Assembly: GCA_001029775.1 (NCBI GenBank)
Contig: CP011215.1
Coordinates: 490,303 to 554,302, forward strand
Direction of reading: 5' to 3'
Length of the DNA stretch: 64,000 nt
Source: Candidatus Campbellbacteria bacterium GW2011_OD1_34_28
Lineage (GTDB): Bacteria; Patescibacteriota; Minisyncoccia; Phycocordibacterales; UBA12079
A program made the position numbers and the translations under genes. Shown one piece after another: positions 3,814-54,636 of the stretch. The notes under the pieces were generated by a model that was given only the letters and a program-made list of their open reading frames with translations, made no database searches and was not told the DNA's origin. How positions within the stretch are numbered: position 1 is the first letter of the stretch; each line of letters opens with the position of its first letter.

Positions 3814-3827
3814 CAAATCGCAAAAAA

Positions 3828-3864
3828 GAAACGCCAGTTCGAAAGAACTGGCGTTTCTTTTTTA
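3828..3864 (+). terminator. intrinsic terminator after tRNA-Glu
   Basis: AAACGCCAGTTC-GAAA-GAACTGGCGTTT + TTTTTT. Confidence 0.7.
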
Positions 3865-4028
3865 GAAAAGCAAACTGCTTTGCTTTTCGGCGATTTGTGA
3901 AGCCGGAGGCATAATTTTTCGAGCATCACGAGAAAAATAGCCGAGGCGAGGTCGACAAGTACTTAGATATTTTAGAACCCGAAGGGTTTTTAAATATTTA
4001 GTAACTTGTGACCACACAGATTTAGTCA
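3865..4028 (+). repeat. tRNA 3'-flank structured repeat element (Glu-CTC copy)
   Basis: GCAAACTGCTTTGC hairpin, GATTTGTGA (inverted copy of tRNA 3' end/trailer), core GAAGCCGGAGGC, variable hairpin, ACTTAGATATTTT...AAATATTTAGT hairpin, terminal TTGTGACCACACAGA; very similar to 44340..44565. Confidence 0.6.
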
Positions 4029-20746: not shown

Positions 20747-20786
20747 CGGCACAAAAACCAGACCTGAAAGCGACAGCTTTCAGGTC
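20747..20786 (+). terminator. intrinsic terminator
   Basis: CCAGACCTGAAAGC...GCTTTCAGGTCTTTGG + TTTTTG. Confidence 0.65.
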
Positions 20787-20790
20787 TTTG

Positions 20791-20966
20791 GTTTTTGTAG
20801 CCAGAGGAGAGGACTTGAACGGCGGAGGCGGTATACAAGACGAGCGAAGCGAGGGCTTGTCGCCGAGCCGCGTCCAGCAGTACTTAGGCTTTCGGAATCC
20901 GTAGCGAAGCGAAGGATGAGCGAAAGACTTAGTAACTGCGGGACAAGTCCTAACTTTTTAGCACAA
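20791..20966 (+). repeat. tRNA 3'-flank structured repeat element (Leu-TAG copy)
   Basis: GAGGAGAGGACTTGAAC (inverted copy of tRNA-Leu 3' end), core GAACGGCGGAGGCGG, hairpin with GAGCGAAGCGAGG, arm GCCGAGCCGCGTCCAGCAGTACTTAGGC ... AGACTTAGTAACTGCGGGAC, degenerate terminal CAAGTCCT. Confidence 0.6.
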
Positions 20967-26644: not shown

Positions 26645-26844
26645 TTGCGGAGGGTACGAGATTCGGCGCCAGTTCTAAATAAAATTTTCGTCCTGCAGAC
26701 TTAATTTTATTAAGAACTCGCTGCCCCCGCTCACTCGTGTTCGTCGCTTCGCTCCTCCATACTCGCTCGGTTCGAATCTCTTCCCCTCGGTGTAACGACA
26801 CAAAACAAAAACAGTGCATTGGTACTGTTTTTGTTTTGGTCGTG
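26645..26844 (-). repeat. tRNA 3'-flank structured repeat element (Ser-GGA copy)
   Basis: minus strand: terminator, GAGGGGAAGAGATTCGAAC (inverted tRNA-Ser 3' end), CGAGCGAG...GGAGCGAAGCGACG core, hairpin GCGAGTTCTTAATAAAATT/AATTTTATTTAGAACTGGCGC, terminal direct repeat CGAATCTCGTACCCTCCGCA. Confidence 0.6.
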
Positions 26845-31764: not shown

Positions 31765-32313
31765 CTACTCTACGATTTGTAACTTAGGCCATTTCGAAAG
31801 CCATTGTTTTTTGTTTACTCGATTTATAAAATAATCACGCCCATCTCCAAAATTGGGGGTCATTCTTAGTTTAAGAGAAAATAAATCATCTAAACCGTGA
31901 GGAGCTATTATTTTTAAAGAATCGTCTGGCAACATTACAACTCCAATAGCTGTCGCTGTTTCTGGCCAATGTGTGATAGCATCTGTCGACGAAATATAAT
32001 CAGCCCCCTGATTGTTTATTTTCCCCATTCTTGCTTGATTGGTAACAGACCAATCAGCTTCTAATTTTTCTGAAAGAATCCTTTCGTATTTTTTTTCTGT
32101 CTCTTCTGATAAGTCATTTGGATCAAAATATATAACATCAATATCTGTCATATGTGGTTTGTTTTTAAAATTATGTAATGCATCCCAAACAGGGTTACGG
32201 ACAAATCCAGCTCCGATCAACCAATCAGGAAGATTTAATGTGCGAACAGTTCTTAAGATATCCATTCTCCAAGGATCGTTTTTTATTATATTGACGATAA
32301 AATCTTCGTTCAT
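31765..32313 (-). CDS. nucleotidyltransferase-family protein
   Basis: WLIGAGFVRNPVWDALH motif. Confidence 0.5.
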   Translation of the reverse strand: MNEDFIVNIIKNDPWRMDILRTVRTLNLPDWLIGAGFVRNPVWDALHNFKNKPHMTDIDVIYFDPNDLSEETEKKYERILSEKLEADWSVTNQARMGKINNQGADYISSTDAITHWPETATAIGVVMLPDDSLKIIAPHGLDDLFSLKLRMTPNFGDGRDYFINRVNKKQWLSKWPKLQIVE

Positions 32314-32329
32314 TTTTAAAAGTATATCA

Positions 32330-32470
32330 TTTATATTTTTTACGAAAAGCGTGGGGGCGCTTTTCTTTGACTATGATGACTCGACTTCCAGTTCTAATCG
32401 AAAATTTCGTCTTCACTTCGTTACAACTCATTTTCGATAAGAACTCGCTGTCCCGTCGCTCATATTTTTC
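32330..32470 (-). repeat. solo/degenerate copy of tRNA-flank repeat module (no adjacent tRNA)
   Basis: rc: GAGCGACGGGACAGCGAGTTCTTATCGAAAAT...ATTTTCGATTAGAACTGGAAGTCGAGTC; same hairpin module as the Ser copy. Confidence 0.45.
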
Positions 32471-32709: not shown

Positions 32710-32748
32710 CATTGAAATTTTTTGAAATTTCAATACAATAGTGTATTA

Positions 32749-32992
32749 TCCGCTCGTAGCTCAGCTGGATGAGAAGCGTTGAAGCTTCGAATCCGAGCGA
32801 AGCGAGGTGGAAGAGTATTCCTTTGAAATGTAAGAGTCGGATGCTAATACACTTAGCATGGACTTCAGAGGTTTTACACAAAAGTAAAAGTAGAGATATC
32901 CGCTCGTAGCTCAGCTTCTGCCAAAGGCAGACAGGGTCCGAGCAACAATCATTGAGACAGACAAGTCTGTAAAATCATCATGGATTTAGTAT
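32749..32992 (+). pseudogene. two truncated 5' copies of tRNA-Lys each followed by unrelated structured sequence
   Basis: TCCGCTCGTAGCTCAGCT(GG) occurs at 32749, 32899 and 32991; only the third continues into a full tRNA; copy 1 is followed by CTTCGAATCCGAGCGAAGCGAGG. Confidence 0.55.
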
Positions 32993-33065
32993 CCGCTCGT
33001 AGCTCAGCTGGTAGAGCATCCGACTCTTAATCGGCAGGTCGAAGGTTCGATCCCTTCCGAGCGGA
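32993..33065 (+). tRNA. tRNA-Lys (anticodon CTT)
   Basis: acceptor CCGCTCG/CGAGCGG, D-arm GCTCAGCTGGTAGAGC, anticodon loop CTCTTAA, T-loop TTCGATC. Confidence 0.8.
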
Positions 33066-33374: not shown

Positions 33375-33447
33375 GGGCCTATAGTTTCAATTGGTAAAAC
33401 AGTGGTCTCCAAAACCATCGTTCGAGGTTCGAGTCCTCGTGGGCCCG
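33375..33447 (+). tRNA. tRNA-Trp (anticodon CCA)
   Basis: acceptor GGGCCTA/TGGGCCC, anticodon loop CTCCAAA, T-loop TTCGAGT. Confidence 0.85.
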
Positions 33448-33681
33448 CAAAAAGAAGACCCGCAAGGGTTTTTCTTTTTGTTGGGTCCACGAACAAAGCA
33501 ATCTAAATTGCTTTGTGTAGGACGAGAACGGCGGAGCGGTTTACAATTTTAGTAAAATTTTCCAACAAAGAAAATCTTACTAAAATTGTCGCGAGCCGCG
33601 TCCAGCGATACTTAGACTTTTTGAAACACGAAGTGTTTCAAAAAGACTTAGTAATCGCGGGACAGTCCTCGTGGGCCCGCA
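33448..33681 (+). repeat. tRNA 3'-flank structured repeat element (Trp copy)
   Basis: terminator hairpin, GTAGGACGAGAACGGCGGAGCGG core, variable hairpin, arm GCGAGCCGCGTCCAGCGATACTTAGAC + long hairpin TTTTTGAAACACGAAGTGTTTCAAAAAG + AGACTTAGTAATCGCGGGAC, direct repeat AGTCCTCGTGGGCCCGCA of the tRNA-Trp 3' end. Confidence 0.65.
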
Positions 33682-44339: not shown

Positions 44340-44565
44340 ATTTATAATCTAGAGGATTCTTATTTTGCTTGTTTAGGAATGCTTCGCATACTAAATCTGT
44401 GTGGACACAAATCACTAAATATTTTTTTCGCCCTTTGGGCTCAAAAATATCTAAGTGTTTGTCGTCCTCGGCTCGCGGTTTTTGTCTCTTTGTGAGAGAC
44501 AAAAACATTGCTCCGCCTTCACAAAGCTAAAAAAGCAAAGCAGTTTGCTTTTTCTTAACGCTTTG
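44340..44565 (-). repeat. tRNA 3'-flank structured repeat element (Glu-TTC copy)
   Basis: minus strand: GCAAACTGCTTTGC terminator, CTTTGTGAAGGCGGAGC core, hairpin GTTTTTGTCTCTC/GAGAGACAAAAAC, CGCGAGCCGAGGACGAC...ACTTAGATATTTTTG...AAAAATATTTAGT, terminal TTTGTGTCCACACAGA; close to the Glu-CTC copy. Confidence 0.6.
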
Positions 44566-53385: not shown

Positions 53386-53622
53386 ATGAACAAAGTAACA
53401 ATTTATACAACACCGACTTGTACTTATTGTTTGATGGCAAAAGATTTTTTTCAAAGCAACGATGTTGACTATGAAGAAGTTGATGTTGCTGGCAATCAAG
53501 AAAAAATACAAGAGCTGTTGGAGTTGACCGATGGTCAAATGGGAGTGCCTGTTATCGTAATTGATGGGGAAGTAGTCTTTGGTTTTGACAAAAGCAGAAT
53601 CGAAGAGCTTTTGGGAATTTAA
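53386..53622 (+). CDS. glutaredoxin/NrdH-like redoxin
   Basis: VTIYTTPTCTYC (CxxC) and GVPVIVIDGE. Confidence 0.7.
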   Translation: MNKVTIYTTPTCTYCLMAKDFFQSNDVDYEEVDVAGNQEKIQELLELTDGQMGVPVIVIDGEVVFGFDKSRIEELLGI

Positions 53623-53647
53623 AAACAACAATAAAATTTTAAATAAA

Positions 53648-53683
53648 AAACCCCGTATAAATTTTATTTACGGGTTTTTTTAT
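53648..53683 (+). terminator. intrinsic terminator
   Basis: AAAAAACCCCGTATAAATTTTATTTACGGGTTTTTTT. Confidence 0.75.
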
Positions 53684-53738
53684 TTATTAAACATTAAATT
53701 GAATAAAAAACATTATAATGATATCTTAGAGAATAAAT

Positions 53739-53810
53739 GCTCTCATAGTTAAATGGATATAACGACTCCGTCCTAAGGAGTAATTCTAGGTTCGATTCCT
53801 GGTGAGAGCA
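53739..53810 (+). tRNA. tRNA-Arg (anticodon CCT)
   Basis: acceptor GCTCTCA/TGAGAGC, anticodon loop GTCCTAA, T-loop TTCGATT. Confidence 0.85.
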
Positions 53811-54056
53811 CAAAATAAAAACAGGTGTAGCGAAAGCTCCGCCTGTTTTTATTTTGTGTTCTCACAGAAAGCAAACTGCTTTGCTTTCGTCAGGAATCGA
53901 ACGGTGGAGCATGTCGCACGCAAGTTATTTTCTCCCACAAAGAGAAAATAACGAGTACGACAGCGAACCGCGTCCAGCGATACTTGGGATTTTTTGAAAC
54001 ACGAAGTGTTTTGAAAAAGACTTAGTAATCGCGGGACGATTCCTGGTGAGAGCACA
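53811..54056 (+). repeat. tRNA 3'-flank structured repeat element (Arg copy; best-preserved)
   Basis: GCAAACTGCTTTGC hairpin; GTGTTCTCAC..TCAGGAATCGAAC = rc of tRNA 3' half; core GAACGGTGGAGC; variable hairpin; CGAACCGCGTCCAGCGATACTTGGG + long hairpin + AGACTTAGTAATCGCGGGAC; terminal direct repeat CGATTCCTGGTGAGAGCACA. Confidence 0.7.
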
Positions 54057-54106
54057 TATTAAAAACAAGTTTACTTTGATGTTTTTTTTGATATACTTTT
54101 GTTTAT

Positions 54107-54227
54107 GGATCCCGTTAGAGATAGCGAACGCATAGCGGGATAAACAACAGAATCAATTTATTAATATAATTTAAATAGATAGAACGTGTGATTATATAAA
54201 GTTCGCGTCCTATCTCTAACGGGATGG
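54107..54227 (+). promoter_or_regulatory. long-range inverted repeat whose 3' arm ends at the start codon of ORF 54224
   Basis: GGATCCCGTTAGAGATAGCGAACGC ... GTTCGCGTCCTATCTCTAACGGGATGG; at least 16 perfect bp across a ~70-nt loop; ATG at 54224. Confidence 0.45.
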
Positions 54228-54505
54228 AATATTTTGATCCAGAATTACAAAATTTGATGAGGGAAAATCTCAAAGTTGCTAATGAGAACAATGAATTGCT
54301 TCACAAAATTTGGAGAGATGTTCAATATAAGAGATTTCTCAAATTTTTTTATTGGGGAATAATAATTGCCATTACTTTTGGTGCATATTATTATATCCAA
54401 CCAATCATAGATTCAATTTCTGAAAATTATGGTAGTTTGAGAGGAGGACTTGATGTAGGTATCAAAAATTTTCAAAAAATAAATGATTTGATTCCCAAGA
54501 TTTAA
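54224..54505 (+). CDS. small hypothetical membrane protein
   Basis: 93 aa; central TM helix FFYWGIIIAITFGAYYYI. Confidence 0.4.
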   Translation: MEYFDPELQNLMRENLKVANENNELLHKIWRDVQYKRFLKFFYWGIIIAITFGAYYYIQPIIDSISENYGSLRGGLDVGIKNFQKINDLIPKI

Positions 54506-54531: not shown

Positions 54532-54604
54532 GTCGAGGTAGCTCAGTTGGTAGAGCATTCGCCTGAAGAGCGAAGGGTCGGCGGTTCGAGCCCGCCCCTC
54601 GACA
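54532..54604 (+). tRNA. tRNA-Phe (anticodon GAA)
   Basis: acceptor GTCGAGG/CCTCGAC, anticodon loop CTGAAGA, T-loop TTCGAGC. Confidence 0.85.
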
Positions 54605-54636
54605 CATATAAAAAATCAGCCTGAATAAGGCGTAAA

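Follow-up and report, generated by a model that had tools for sequence, protein, structure and literature searches.

A previously undescribed GC-rich, structured non-coding element directly behind tRNA genes of Patescibacteria

Fungal mitochondrial GIY-YIG and LAGLIDADG ORFs, as well as SegB in the tRNA region of phage T4, are cassettes that carry, or leave behind, a partial copy of the gene they invade. In Escherichia coli, the tyrT-linked 178-bp repeats (RtT RNA, RF00391) are located downstream of a tRNA, each containing its 3'-terminal ~19 nt. To our knowledge, no mobile element or RNA family joins a conserved core to two arms, one in each orientation, that derive from the tRNA beside it.

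In this study, we describe a previously undescribed GC-rich, highly structured non-coding element found directly behind many tRNA genes of Patescibacteria. The analysis started from 64,000 nt of Candidatus Campbellbacteria bacterium GW2011_OD1_34_28 (CP011215.1), hereafter the window, in which a repeat element had been noticed from the letters alone (the original prediction), best preserved after tRNA-Arg(CCT).

A family of elements behind tRNA genes

The element follows a modular order: the tRNA, a terminator-like hairpin, an inverted copy of the acceptor strand, hairpin P2, an inverted copy of the T-arm, a core of P3 and P4, and a direct tRNA copy beginning at C56. The size ranges from ~130 to 250 nt and the G+C content from 37 to 52%, compared with 34% G+C for the genome. 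The core consists of two hairpin domains, P3 with a tandem G-A motif and P4 with a nearly invariant ACUUAG/CUUAGUA loop, while P2 is often CUGC-looped. A covariance model, R1, was built from related copies with the Glu and Ser copies left out. It recovers all six copies claimed for the window, at scores of 105, 94, 88, 33, 32, and 26.5 bits (E from 2e-27 to 2e-5), with no further convincing match in the 64 kb. Across Patescibacteria, R1 identifies 109 non-overlapping copies from 75 loci, which had been gathered by two narrow pattern scans. The fixed modular order that was originally proposed is thus that of a real family, and 109 copies are enough for structure determination and a new Rfam entry. 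Individual motifs are also far in excess of chance: the 22-nt conserved arm occurs three times and the P2 motif four times, each against 0.00 expected.

Scanning wider genomes had been suggested as a check. Outside Patescibacteria, the pattern scan of genome contigs gave six matches, none matched by the model, and they are attributed to chance. Two core patterns gave no match in viral contigs, and an origin from phage att regions was dropped on the basis of the viral contigs scanned. With Rfam 15, the 11 tRNAs of the window match at gathering score and nothing else does; at E<=10 the region 53800-54080 gave only chance-level matches, all far below gathering scores. A literature search found no described family matching the element, in line with the earlier failure to assign it to one.

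More than half of the tRNA genes in the window (6 of 11) are occupied, and the other five carry no copy. Of the 109 R1 copies, 59 begin no more than 120 nt downstream of a tRNA on the same strand, and 18 sit 121-700 nt beyond one, possibly in arrays. Host tRNAs of the R1 copies span 28 isoacceptors, and the element is always oriented as its tRNA.

The window had been expected to hold six or more copies; six were confirmed, and a truncated Ser-type copy is the seventh (Table 1). This remnant lies in a segment rearranged relative to a related locus, L067. Mature host tRNAs were said to be intact, and all six are indeed contiguous, with 50-61 bits on RF00005. The statement that one architecture follows all six tRNAs stands only in part: the direct copies of Trp and Ser are complete, the Leu copy is interrupted, and no direct 3' copy was detected in either Glu copy. 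In the Glu subtype, the 5' arm pairs solely with the last 5 nt of the tRNA and the trailer (TCACAAAGC/GCTTTGTGA). Beyond the Leu(TAG) copy, the terminator recurs, together with the start of the inverted copy. The two terminators are direct, not inverted, duplicates, and a fold-back origin, with T1 reverse-complementary to the terminator downstream, was rejected.

Table 1. Parts of the Arg copy and other copies of the element in the window
Feature	Position	Strand	Basis
Host tRNA-Arg(CCT) with CA after the discriminator	53739..53812	+	ARAGORN; Rfam tRNA 60.4 bits; sequence
T1, locus-specific terminator-like hairpin (A-tract, stem-loop, T-tract)	53813..53855	+	sequence
B'b, inverted copy of acceptor 3' strand and discriminator-CA, TGTGTTCTCAC	53855..53865	+	sequence
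P2 hairpin, 9-bp stem, CUGC cap, GAAAGCAAA-CTGC-TTTGCTTTC	53867..53888	+	sequence, fold
B'a, inverted copy of T-stem 3' strand and T-loop, TCAGGAATCGAAC	53890..53902	+	sequence
P3, 4-bp CGGU/ACCG, tandem G-A motif (G-GA-GC / GC-GA), variable long hairpin, loop CACAAAG	53902..53970	+	fold
P4, long hairpin GUCC.GCGAU.ACUUGG ... CUUAGUA.AUCGC.GGGAC	53972..54037	+	fold, covariation
Direct tRNA copy, C56 to discriminator-CA, CGATTCCTGGTGAGAGCACA	54037..54056	+	sequence
Copy behind tRNA-Trp(CCA), complete architecture	33449..33681	+	R1 88 bits
Copy behind tRNA-Leu(TAG), without P2, direct copy interrupted	20753..20966	+	R1 94 bits
Copy behind tRNA-Ser(GGA), divergent 'Ser-type' core, complete 19-nt direct copy	26645..26843	-	R1 26.5 bits, E=2e-5
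Copy behind tRNA-Glu(CTC), divergent subtype	3815..4028	+	R1 33 bits
Copy behind tRNA-Glu(TTC), same subtype as Glu(CTC)	44389..44564	-	R1 32 bits
5'-truncated Ser-type remnant, without same-strand tRNA	about 32347..32455	-	alignment to L014 Ser-type copy

Arms, fold and strand

The tRNA-Arg(CCT) itself covers 53739-53810 and is followed by CA; the arms have their master copy in its final 20 nt, CA included (53793-53812, from T-loop C56). The direct copy at 54037-54056 is identical to it at 20 of 20 positions and pairs with B'a and B'b to form the closing helix P1. B'a ends at the complement of G53, and B'b has one C>T change that yields a G-U pair on this strand. The core spans 53902-54037, with the internal loop of P4 nearly invariant and its tip variable. 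The position of P2 corresponds to the point on a tRNA acceptor/T helix from which the D and anticodon arms would branch. The hairpin GCAAACTGCTTTGC, at first read as a terminator ahead of the element, is this P2 and lies inside the inverted copy; the locus-specific terminator-like hairpin, T1, is a separate one upstream. Another hairpin string quoted for the Arg copy belongs to the Trp copy, from which Arg differs at two bases. T1 is the centre of a long palindrome of tRNA 3' end, T1, and inverted copy, and in a co-transcript of the Arg locus it would fold as the core of a hairpin of >40 bp. The stems of T1 vary between loci despite alike cores.

Each of the 52 tRNA-adjacent copies tested has an inverted copy. 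The direct copy is complete (18-21 nt) in 17 of 51 such copies and restricted to the T-arm (7-12 nt) in 27 of 51, and its start is the fixed T-loop position C56. The cassette of P3 and P4, usually with P2 ahead, is flanked by sequence derived from the universally conserved T-loop (B-box), GGAATCGAAC on the left and C(G)ATTCC on the right. Outside these flanks, the T-stem and acceptor 3' strand of the host are reproduced in the arms, once inverted and once direct, so that arm sequence varies from locus to locus and the copies have only the T-loop-derived ~10 nt in common. This bears out the proposal that the terminal segments track the identity of the host tRNA. The accompanying claim that there are no terminal inverted repeats is wrong in form, since the inverted 5' and direct 3' copies amount to copy-specific terminal inverted repeats. 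The suggested release by RNase P/Z-type cleavage is weakened because the discriminator-CA of the tRNA mimic is base-paired and not free.

The stems covary, as the original prediction anticipated. In an alignment that was itself fitted to the model, 93.4% of cells are paired, compared with 27-38% when the partners are slid, and 24 of 27 pairs have changed on both sides. Such double changes affect 8 of 8 pairs in the closing helix P1a and 11 of 14 in P4, where 96.9% of cells are paired; P3 displays the compensatory variants CGGC/GCCG, CGAC/GUCG, CAGC/GCUG, and CGGU/ACCG. A CTGC-loop hairpin of at least 6 bp occurs in 35 of 85 distinct 5' regions, and the hairpins scored in 5' regions have 64 distinct stem sequences. 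Among the motifs considered, the element contains only a tandem G-A with a one-base bulge. Judged by eye, the sequence requirements of integron attC, hammerhead and other small ribozymes, group II domain V, the K-turn proper, and the sarcin-ricin loop are unmet.

The fold also has a strand. The tRNA-sense strand is the more stable one in 75 of 82 copies (p=3e-13), and GCGAAGC and GCGAAAGC, which are unusually stable DNA mini-hairpins, are 15-fold enriched with a strand bias of 39:1. On these numbers, a minus-strand gene was rejected; the overlapping ORF 53849-54055(-) is spurious, consistent with the earlier finding of no ORF and no CRISPR-like periodicity in the element. Elements of this kind confound annotation through such spurious ORFs and through partial tRNA copies. 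The conserved fold shows selection on the tRNA-sense strand, acting as transcript, RNA or single-stranded DNA. No promoter-like site was found on this strand between the terminator and the element, which leaves expression uncertain.

Neighbouring genes, occupancy and possible origins

No protein is consistently linked to the element among the loci examined. When the ORFs within 1.2 kb of all 109 copies were clustered, none was recurrent and the largest cluster had 5 members. A Pfam search of 30 neighbours or cluster representatives detected no transposase, integrase, reverse transcriptase or TnpB, and returned housekeeping genes, HU, YraN-like, ParB and similar proteins. Endonuclease cassettes occur in related loci. 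In L047, a GIY-YIG cassette (PF01541) has tRNA-Glu on one side and, on the other, 20 nt that directly repeat the 3' end of this tRNA from C56; others in L059 and L073 occupy D-loops with a duplicated 5' end, and a LAGLIDADG-like ORF abuts tRNA-Gly. The GIY-YIG profile has 5 matches in all loci (about 75) and none in the window. The insertion geometry of the element, with the host gene whole and a partial duplicate left, is that of the L047 cassette. Together with these cassettes, the element marks the D-loop and T-loop boxes of tRNA genes as invasion hot spots in the phylum.

Occupancy of orthologous tRNA loci is patchy. In loci picked via ribosomal protein L33, and not via the element, tRNA-Trp carries a copy only in the species of the window, and relatives have one behind tRNA-Leu(CAA) or tRNA-Tyr instead. 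Tandem arrays exist, some of them with small cargo ORFs, and solo copies are found away from tRNAs. The 5'-truncated remnants retain the 3' half of P4 and the T-arm copy, with break points clustered at the P4 tip and not spread out. The elements also mark rearrangement break points, the 3' end of the Trp element being an exact inversion breakpoint relative to L067. Cores behind Arg-TCT, Glu-CTC, Lys-CTT, and Lys-TTT are 96-99% identical, and the identity stops exactly at the T-loop-derived bases, the arms being local.

The mobility put forward in the original prediction receives indirect support: patchy occupancy, arrays, remnants, and near-identical cores point to it, but gene conversion between long-resident copies would explain the cores equally well. 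Comparing strains at tRNA loci gave a similarly divided result. Orthologous loci are patchy, whereas near-identical genomes, found via exact-protein look-ups, keep the same copies, and the fetched loci include no filled/empty pair of otherwise near-identical alleles.

Our preferred reading, which we hold tentatively, is a non-autonomous selfish element of tRNA-gene 3' ends that would be spread and homogenised by recombination. Copies may rarely reach new tRNA loci, and recombination or gene conversion seeded on the homology of core and T-loop would frequently homogenise them. Double-strand breaks might assist; free-standing GIY-YIG and LAGLIDADG genes enter the same tRNA genes and leave an identical duplication geometry. 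Local templated correction, acting between nearby repeats, could then hold the arms in agreement with the resident tRNA. With a functional tRNA and its terminator intact upstream, an insertion would be harmless to the host. We infer in this sense that the element targets the tRNA 3' end.

Several observations sit uneasily with a selfish element. An inverted copy together with a direct copy of the new host is not explained by any known insertion chemistry, and insertion was never seen directly, the fetched loci holding no filled/empty allele pair. Near-identical genomes keep the same copies, and gene conversion alone explains the identity of the cores. There is no mobility gene near the copies, endonuclease genes are present at about 5 of about 75 loci, and a promoter-like site on the sense strand between terminator and element is missing.

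A less likely alternative is a host-serving, cis-acting 3'-trailer RNA. It would be an old accessory of the tRNA unit, read through from the tRNA promoter, with the inverted arm forming a long processing or protective stem, its partner being the tRNA 3' end, the trailer or the direct copy, and the core binding a protein, and its distribution would reflect vertical inheritance and gene conversion. The rRNA processing stalks cut by RNase III provide a model for such a stem. Conservation of the fold and loops across distant lineages argues for this trailer RNA, as do the constant orientation and the sharp homology borders, which fit gene conversion. Elements without a direct acceptor copy still retain the inverted one, a hint of a cis role at the 3' end of the tRNA itself that suits host function better, and the Glu-subtype arm, which pairs only with tRNA tail and trailer, needs co-transcription for the pairing to matter. 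A host function is, however, difficult to reconcile with five unoccupied tRNAs out of 11 in the window and orthologous tRNA-Trp genes without a copy in other lineages. Tandem arrays, decayed remnants, and solo copies look like accumulated junk, and a strong terminator-like hairpin separates the tRNA from the element.

Somewhat more doubtful is a mobile element of a new kind, one that would home to the T-loop B-box of any tRNA gene and, on arrival, rewrite both arms, inverted and direct, with the invaded tRNA as source and through self-templated synthesis (snap-back or template-switch). The result would be a closing helix that is tRNA-like and specific to that tRNA, used for RNA excision by the tRNA/RNase III machinery or as a programmable module for a trans-acting nuclease. 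Explaining the origin of the arms could reveal a new recombination or templated-synthesis route.

We consider it improbable that the hairpins act in single-stranded DNA, like IS200/IS605-derived palindromes, REP/BIME or integron attC, and are moved in trans by an HUH enzyme or a tyrosine recombinase. The strand-specific structure, its tolerance of G-T pairs, and the enriched, strand-biased mini-hairpins would suit such an element, and so would the long palindrome centred on the terminator and the GTAG with which P2-less copies start after the T-tract. But no such enzyme is present in any locus examined, IS200/IS605 elements make no target duplication and have ends constant between copies, and RNA just as typically has tandem G-A motifs and GNRA-like caps.

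Less probable still is a retro-element, whose RNA copy would anneal its tRNA-like 3' end at a T-loop nick and be reverse-transcribed into it (target-primed reverse transcription), yielding a direct repeat and 5'-truncated copies. Remnants of the expected polarity, which keep the 3' end and T-arm repeat, the fixed start of the direct repeat, and RNA-level structural conservation all agree with this. No reverse transcriptase lies near any copy, however, the direct copy ends in genomic N-CA and not CCA, the break points of the remnants cluster at the P4 tip, and the inverted copy is left unexplained. For Patescibacteria, an absence of group II introns has been reported (PMC13011429).

We give very little credence to a guide RNA, in which the core would be a scaffold and the 18-20 nt tRNA-derived arm a guide, as in the omega RNAs of TnpB/IscB, sending a trans nuclease to element-free tRNA genes. 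Although the scaffold is followed by a ~20-nt copy-specific segment, and the matched DNA is preceded by the invariant T-loop GGTTC in the manner of a target motif, the inverted arm base-pairs with the putative guide, which also matches the intact tRNA of its own element, implying self-targeting. Only 7-12 nt of it remain in 27 of 51 copies, and the neighbourhood contains no gene for TnpB, IscB or Cas.

Scars of integrase-mediated integrative elements, deleted to their att-proximal ends (attL/attR), would account for the classic signature of direct tRNA 3'-end repeats from the T-loop and for arrays with small cargo ORFs, but are already largely refuted by one core behind 28 isoacceptors that covaries as a structure, with no integrase found among the neighbours and no matches in viral contigs.

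Tiny Patescibacteria genomes keep dozens of these elements, for which either selfish drive or function must pay. The elements can also be used as strain-level population-genetic markers for uncultured episymbionts.

Comparison with known systems

The element contains direct repeats of the tRNA 3' end, as attL and attR of integrative elements do. No tyrosine or serine recombinase is found among its neighbours, and the core is not confined to one fixed tRNA. These repeats, complete or T-arm-only, are a candidate target duplication. Against IS200/IS605, the duplication is present and the ends are variable, and the fetched loci contain no TnpA or TnpB. A MITE or other non-autonomous DNA transposon would have terminal inverted repeats common to all copies, whereas the arms here are copy-specific, and no transposase lies among the neighbours of the 109 copies.

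The omega RNAs of TnpB/IscB and the bridge RNAs of IS110 resemble the element in having a structured scaffold that adjoins short segments set by the neighbouring DNA. They differ in that the element has no associated protein gene, its variable segments are paired together, and its inverted and direct copies cover the same target stretch. TIGR-Tas arrays and bridge RNA were discarded as identities, with no 36-nt periodicity and no Nop-domain gene nearby.

The group I introns carried by patescibacterial tRNA genes share with the element the phylum, the association of a structured RNA with tRNA, and the frequent lack of endonuclease genes. They interrupt the anticodon loop (position 35/36) and self-splice, whereas the element is located at the T-loop/3' end, has a far smaller core, and leaves the tRNA uninterrupted. 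The host tRNAs are contiguous, and no Intron_gpI match appears even at E<=10.

Small GC-rich foldable elements of AT-rich genomes, including yeast mitochondrial GC clusters, Allomyces double-hairpin elements, REP/BIME, Rickettsia palindromic elements, and MITEs, are likewise short, non-coding, multi-copy, and hairpin-rich, and occur at rearrangement break points. Their ends are constant and their sites of many kinds, whereas the ends of this element match a single class of host gene, to which they are rewritten, and its interior possesses conserved loops and motifs typical of functional RNA. The E. coli tyrT repeats are alike in being placed 3' of a tRNA gene and containing the tRNA 3' end. 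They are restricted to a single locus and a single tRNA, without an inverted copy and without a core common to other tRNAs, and RF00391 has no match in the window or the element.

Free-standing homing-endonuclease cassettes share the site, which is in or beside a strongly conserved part of a gene, and the outcome, an intact gene with a displaced partial copy on the far side. The GIY-YIG cassettes of related loci even use the same junction, T-loop C56, in L047, and the D-loop in L059 and L073. Unlike them, the element has no ORF and encodes no endonuclease, and it also has the gene end copied in inverted orientation and a conserved, covarying fold.

Architecture of the tRNA-associated element

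The window has a G+C content of 33.8% and carries eleven tRNA genes. All six element copies claimed in the original prediction, the one behind tRNA-Arg(CCT) and five others, were recovered on reading the sequence, and the conserved element blocks occur far above chance expectation in the window. The parts of the Arg copy, which serves as reference, are listed in the table. Its hairpin P2 had been wrongly taken for a terminator, and the hairpin string quoted for this copy belongs to the Trp copy. The earlier statement that terminal inverted repeats are missing is formally incorrect, since the arms are such repeats. The two Glu copies are present but lack the full architecture ascribed to them: the pairing of their 5' arm is confined to the tail and trailer of the tRNA, and in neither was a direct 3' copy detected. 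The Arg element folded alone is predicted to form a closed multi-helix structure (-94.8 kcal/mol), and the predicted fold of a transcript of tRNA plus element reaches z = -14 against shuffled sequences.

Features of the Arg element and of GIY-YIG endonuclease cassettes at related loci (L numbers)
Feature	Locus	Position	Strand	Remark
tRNA-Arg(CCT)	window	53739-53810	+	then CA; sequence reading of 53600-54300
Terminator-like hairpin, symmetric A- and T-tracts	window	53813-53855	+	sequence reading
TGTGTTCTCAC, complement of acceptor 3' strand and discriminator-CA	window	53855-53865	+	sequence reading
P2, 9-bp hairpin with CTGC cap	window	53867-53888	+	sequence reading
TCAGGAATCGAAC, complement of T-stem 3' strand and T-loop	window	53890-53902	+	sequence reading
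Core domain P3 (hairpin)	window	53902-53970	+	sequence reading
Core domain P4 (hairpin)	window	53972-54037	+	sequence reading
Direct copy CGATTCCTGGTGAGAGCACA	window	54037-54056	+	20/20 identity to 53793-53812
GIY-YIG cassette	L047	2845-3260		flanked by tRNA-Glu and by a 20-nt direct repeat of the tRNA 3' end starting at C56
GIY-YIG cassette	L059	1350-1720		in D-loop; first 17 tRNA nt duplicated upstream
GIY-YIG cassette	L073	225-525		in D-loop; first 17 tRNA nt duplicated upstream
GIY-YIG cassette	L031	1115-1460		in D-loop; tRNA 5' end duplicated

The opposite strand of the Arg element holds a 68-aa ORF with a GTG start (53849-54055, minus), wholly within the element, which is almost certainly an artefact, though one that could lead gene callers astray. 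Directly downstream, at 54107-54228, there is another, separate inverted repeat, whose halves TCCCGTTAGAGATA and TATCTCTAACGGGA (extended by GCGAACGC / GCGTCC) flank about 70 AT-rich bases; it reaches into the start of the ORF 54224-54505. N-CA, never CCA, is found directly after the discriminator in all eleven tRNA genes of the window (e.g. 53810-53812, 33447-33449, 54604-54606) and may serve as a signal for 3' processing or be CCA in degenerate form; CCA is encoded in some related genomes (L003, L078). The P-type ATPase of the window is an identical protein in GCA_000990865.1 and GCA_003489565.1.

Family members, fold and strand

The copies belong to a single family that is widespread in Patescibacteria and linked to tRNA 3' ends. 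A scan of species-representative genomes with a 17-base core pattern gave matches at seven Patescibacteria loci, and a longer core pattern gave 67 metagenome loci. Six further matches of the short pattern in other phyla had no covariance-model match and were rejected as chance. The covariance model of the element core (R1) was seeded with 25 main-type cores, the Glu and Ser copies of the window being kept out of the seed. The three seed copies from the window score 88-105 bits, and the non-seed Glu and Ser copies 26-33 bits (E 3e-7 to 2e-5). Over 75 sources, the model found 109 non-overlapping copies, 59 of which start no more than 120 nt beyond the 3' end of a tRNA on the same strand. Another 18 lie 121-700 nt downstream of a tRNA, possibly in arrays, 15 touch a contig end, and 17 have no tRNA inside 700 nt, several of these being located behind tRNA fragments or farther along arrays. 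The element-bearing tRNAs represent 28 isoacceptors. No copy was present in the viral contigs searched with the core, and Rfam 15 holds no family matching the element.

Pair statistics come from a model-fitted alignment of 87 distinct sequences, in which standard pairs occupy 93.4% of cells, compared with 27-38% when the partners are slid, with both-side changes in 24 of 27 pairs. P3 starts with a 4-bp helix (variants CGGC/GCCG, CGAC/GUCG, CAGC/GCUG and CGGU/ACCG), followed by a bulged G, a tandem G-A/A-G and a hairpin of highly variable length. The basal stem of P4 covaries as well (GCGAU/AUCGC, GCAGU/ACUGC, GCGGU/ACCGC); its internal loop ACUUAG/CUUAGUA is nearly invariant and its tip variable. 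P2-type hairpins with a CTGC loop and a stem of 6 bp or more were found in 35 of the 85 distinct 5' regions, and the hairpins scored there comprise 64 distinct stem sequences. GCGAAGC frequently caps the variable hairpins; it is enriched 15-fold inside elements, with 39 sense-strand occurrences to one on the opposite strand. The tRNA-sense strand also folds better in 75 of 82 copies (means -53.4 versus -46.3 kcal/mol, p = 3e-13). The constraint therefore acts on the sense strand, as RNA or single-stranded DNA.

tRNA-derived arms, arrays and neighbouring cassettes

All 52 distinct tRNA-adjacent copies repeat the 3' part of the tRNA in inverted orientation (9-25 matched bases), and this inverted arm ends at the complement of G53. 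The direct copy begins at T-loop C56, which often doubles as the final base of P4. Among 51 copies its length is bimodal: 17 reach the discriminator-CA, 27 end after the T-stem (7-12 nt), and five are shorter than 6 nt. P2 departs from the inverted arm at the T-stem/acceptor boundary (positions 65/66), which is also a site of replacements or small insertions in several direct copies. Because the inverted acceptor arm runs directly on from the terminator T-tract, a single long, near-perfect palindrome stretches from the 3' end of the tRNA through the terminator into that arm. The direct copy ends in N-CA as in the gene, not in CCA; its source is therefore DNA or precursor sequence rather than mature tRNA. 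The arms of two elements are broken by a very small inserted palindrome, CCTGCCTGCC-GG(T)-AGGCAGG, which lies in the direct arm in L012 (815-850) and in the inverted arm of the tRNA-Tyr element in L048; it may be a second, still smaller mobile palindrome.

Occupancy was compared at loci chosen through ribosomal protein L33, independently of the element. Among them, the window's species alone had the element behind tRNA-Trp; in the Pacebacteria and Kaiserbacteria relatives, this tRNA directly adjoins miaA. Of the L33-chosen loci, those of Pacebacteria have an element 3' of tRNA-Leu(CAA) (42.8 bits), those of Kaiserbacteria a weaker match behind tRNA-Tyr (24.5 bits), and those of Nomurabacteria no model match. 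No filled/empty pairs of close alleles were found among the fetched loci. Three elements stand in series behind tRNA-Ile in L005, and exact tandem units of P2, inverted T-arm, core and direct T-arm occur in L021. Runs of 5'-truncated remnants, each retaining the P4 3' half and the T-arm copy, were seen in L015, L014, L028 and L073. The window differs from the related locus L067 by an inversion, with one break point at the final base of the Trp element and a truncated Ser-type remnant in the other break region. An NTP_transf_6 nucleotidyltransferase gene (31765-32313, minus; PF06042, E=2e-56) adjoins the Ser-type remnant (32347-32455, minus), and this segment has no BLAST match in L067, which is also inverted here. 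Pseudo tRNA 3' ends (GGTTCGAA, 11-20 unrelated nt and ...GCA, the rest of the tRNA absent) stand before solo elements or small cargo ORFs (L014 3840-3870 and 4320-4350, L027 ~860-890, L044 ~3880-3910); one such ORF, in L014, is 83 aa long and has a promoter-like site (TTGACA/TATTCT) of its own.

Cores from Arg-TCT, Glu-CTC, Lys-CTT and Lys-TTT loci are 96-99% identical. The identity is bounded exactly by the T-loop-derived GGAATCGAAC and CATTCC, with P2 less alike and terminator and arms wholly local. Borders this sharp imply one of two histories: the copies spread very recently and had their arms re-specified, or resident copies underwent gene conversion with one another as far as their homology extends.

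No protein family accompanying the copies was detected among the ORFs near them, and in the window the genes next to the copies are unrelated (GNAT acetyltransferase, LemA, kinase-like protein, methyltransferase, RbfA and glutaredoxin). Small GIY-YIG ORFs (PF01541, 74-100 aa) invade tRNA genes in a like style and leave the tRNA intact at all four cassettes. The three D-loop insertions lie immediately before G18G19, and in L047 the structured element comes after the cassette. LAGLIDADG-like ORFs adjoin tRNA-Gly in L028 and L036; a 221-aa ORF with the LAGLIDADG-like motif LGLGLYIGEGSK (L028 647-1312, L036 8384-9049) stops 2 nt short of tRNA-Gly(TCC). The related 238-aa L020 protein, the sole member of the LAGLIDADG-like cluster scanned, had no Pfam match. 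Endonuclease cassettes occur at only about 5 of 75 loci and were not found in the window. Upstream of tRNA-Lys(CTT), at 32740-33010 of the window, the first ~20 nt of this tRNA (TATCCGCTCGTAGCTCAGCT) are present three times. The first partial copy resembles a mini-tRNA minus the anticodon arm, and the spacer of the second opens with the hairpin TCTGCC-AAA-GGCAGA, like the start of the L073 cassette; these repeats are probably a remnant of D-loop endonuclease cassettes.

Interpretation and comparison with known systems

The evidence best supports a non-autonomous, selfish element that occupies the 3' ends of tRNA genes. It would spare the tRNA and its terminator, be flanked by T-loop-derived sequence and have its fold closed by copies of the host tRNA end; recombination would spread and homogenise the copies, perhaps assisted by endonucleases targeting the same conserved boxes. 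The copies presumably arrived by insertion, and transcription would proceed by read-through of the terminator-like hairpin; no sense-strand promoter was found between terminator and element. Any processing of the element RNA is likewise putative. P1 and P2 look like an acceptor/T-arm helix with a single side arm, and the element is not a clean RNase P/Z substrate because its discriminator-CA is paired. The 20-24-bp P1, or a hairpin of >40 bp with the tRNA end, would equally suit RNase III.

The main rival is a 3'-trailer RNA that serves the host, kept matched to each tRNA and homogenised by gene conversion; both the inverted acceptor arms kept without a direct partner and the Glu subtype, whose arm pairs only with the tRNA tail, speak for it. 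It seems unlikely that the element is of a new type, one using the invaded tRNA as template to remake its arms. Readings as a single-stranded DNA element, a retro-element, a guide RNA or an integrase scar each explain some features, but each is without its enzyme or at odds with others.

We found nothing equivalent to the element in the literature searched; the closest paper deals with Patescibacteria tRNAs whose anticodon loops contain group I introns. Parts of it resemble homing cassettes, with their partial gene duplication, GC-rich foldable mini-elements and tRNA-linked repeats. Unlike these known systems, it combines a covarying conserved core with both inverted and direct copies of the neighbouring tRNA 3' end.
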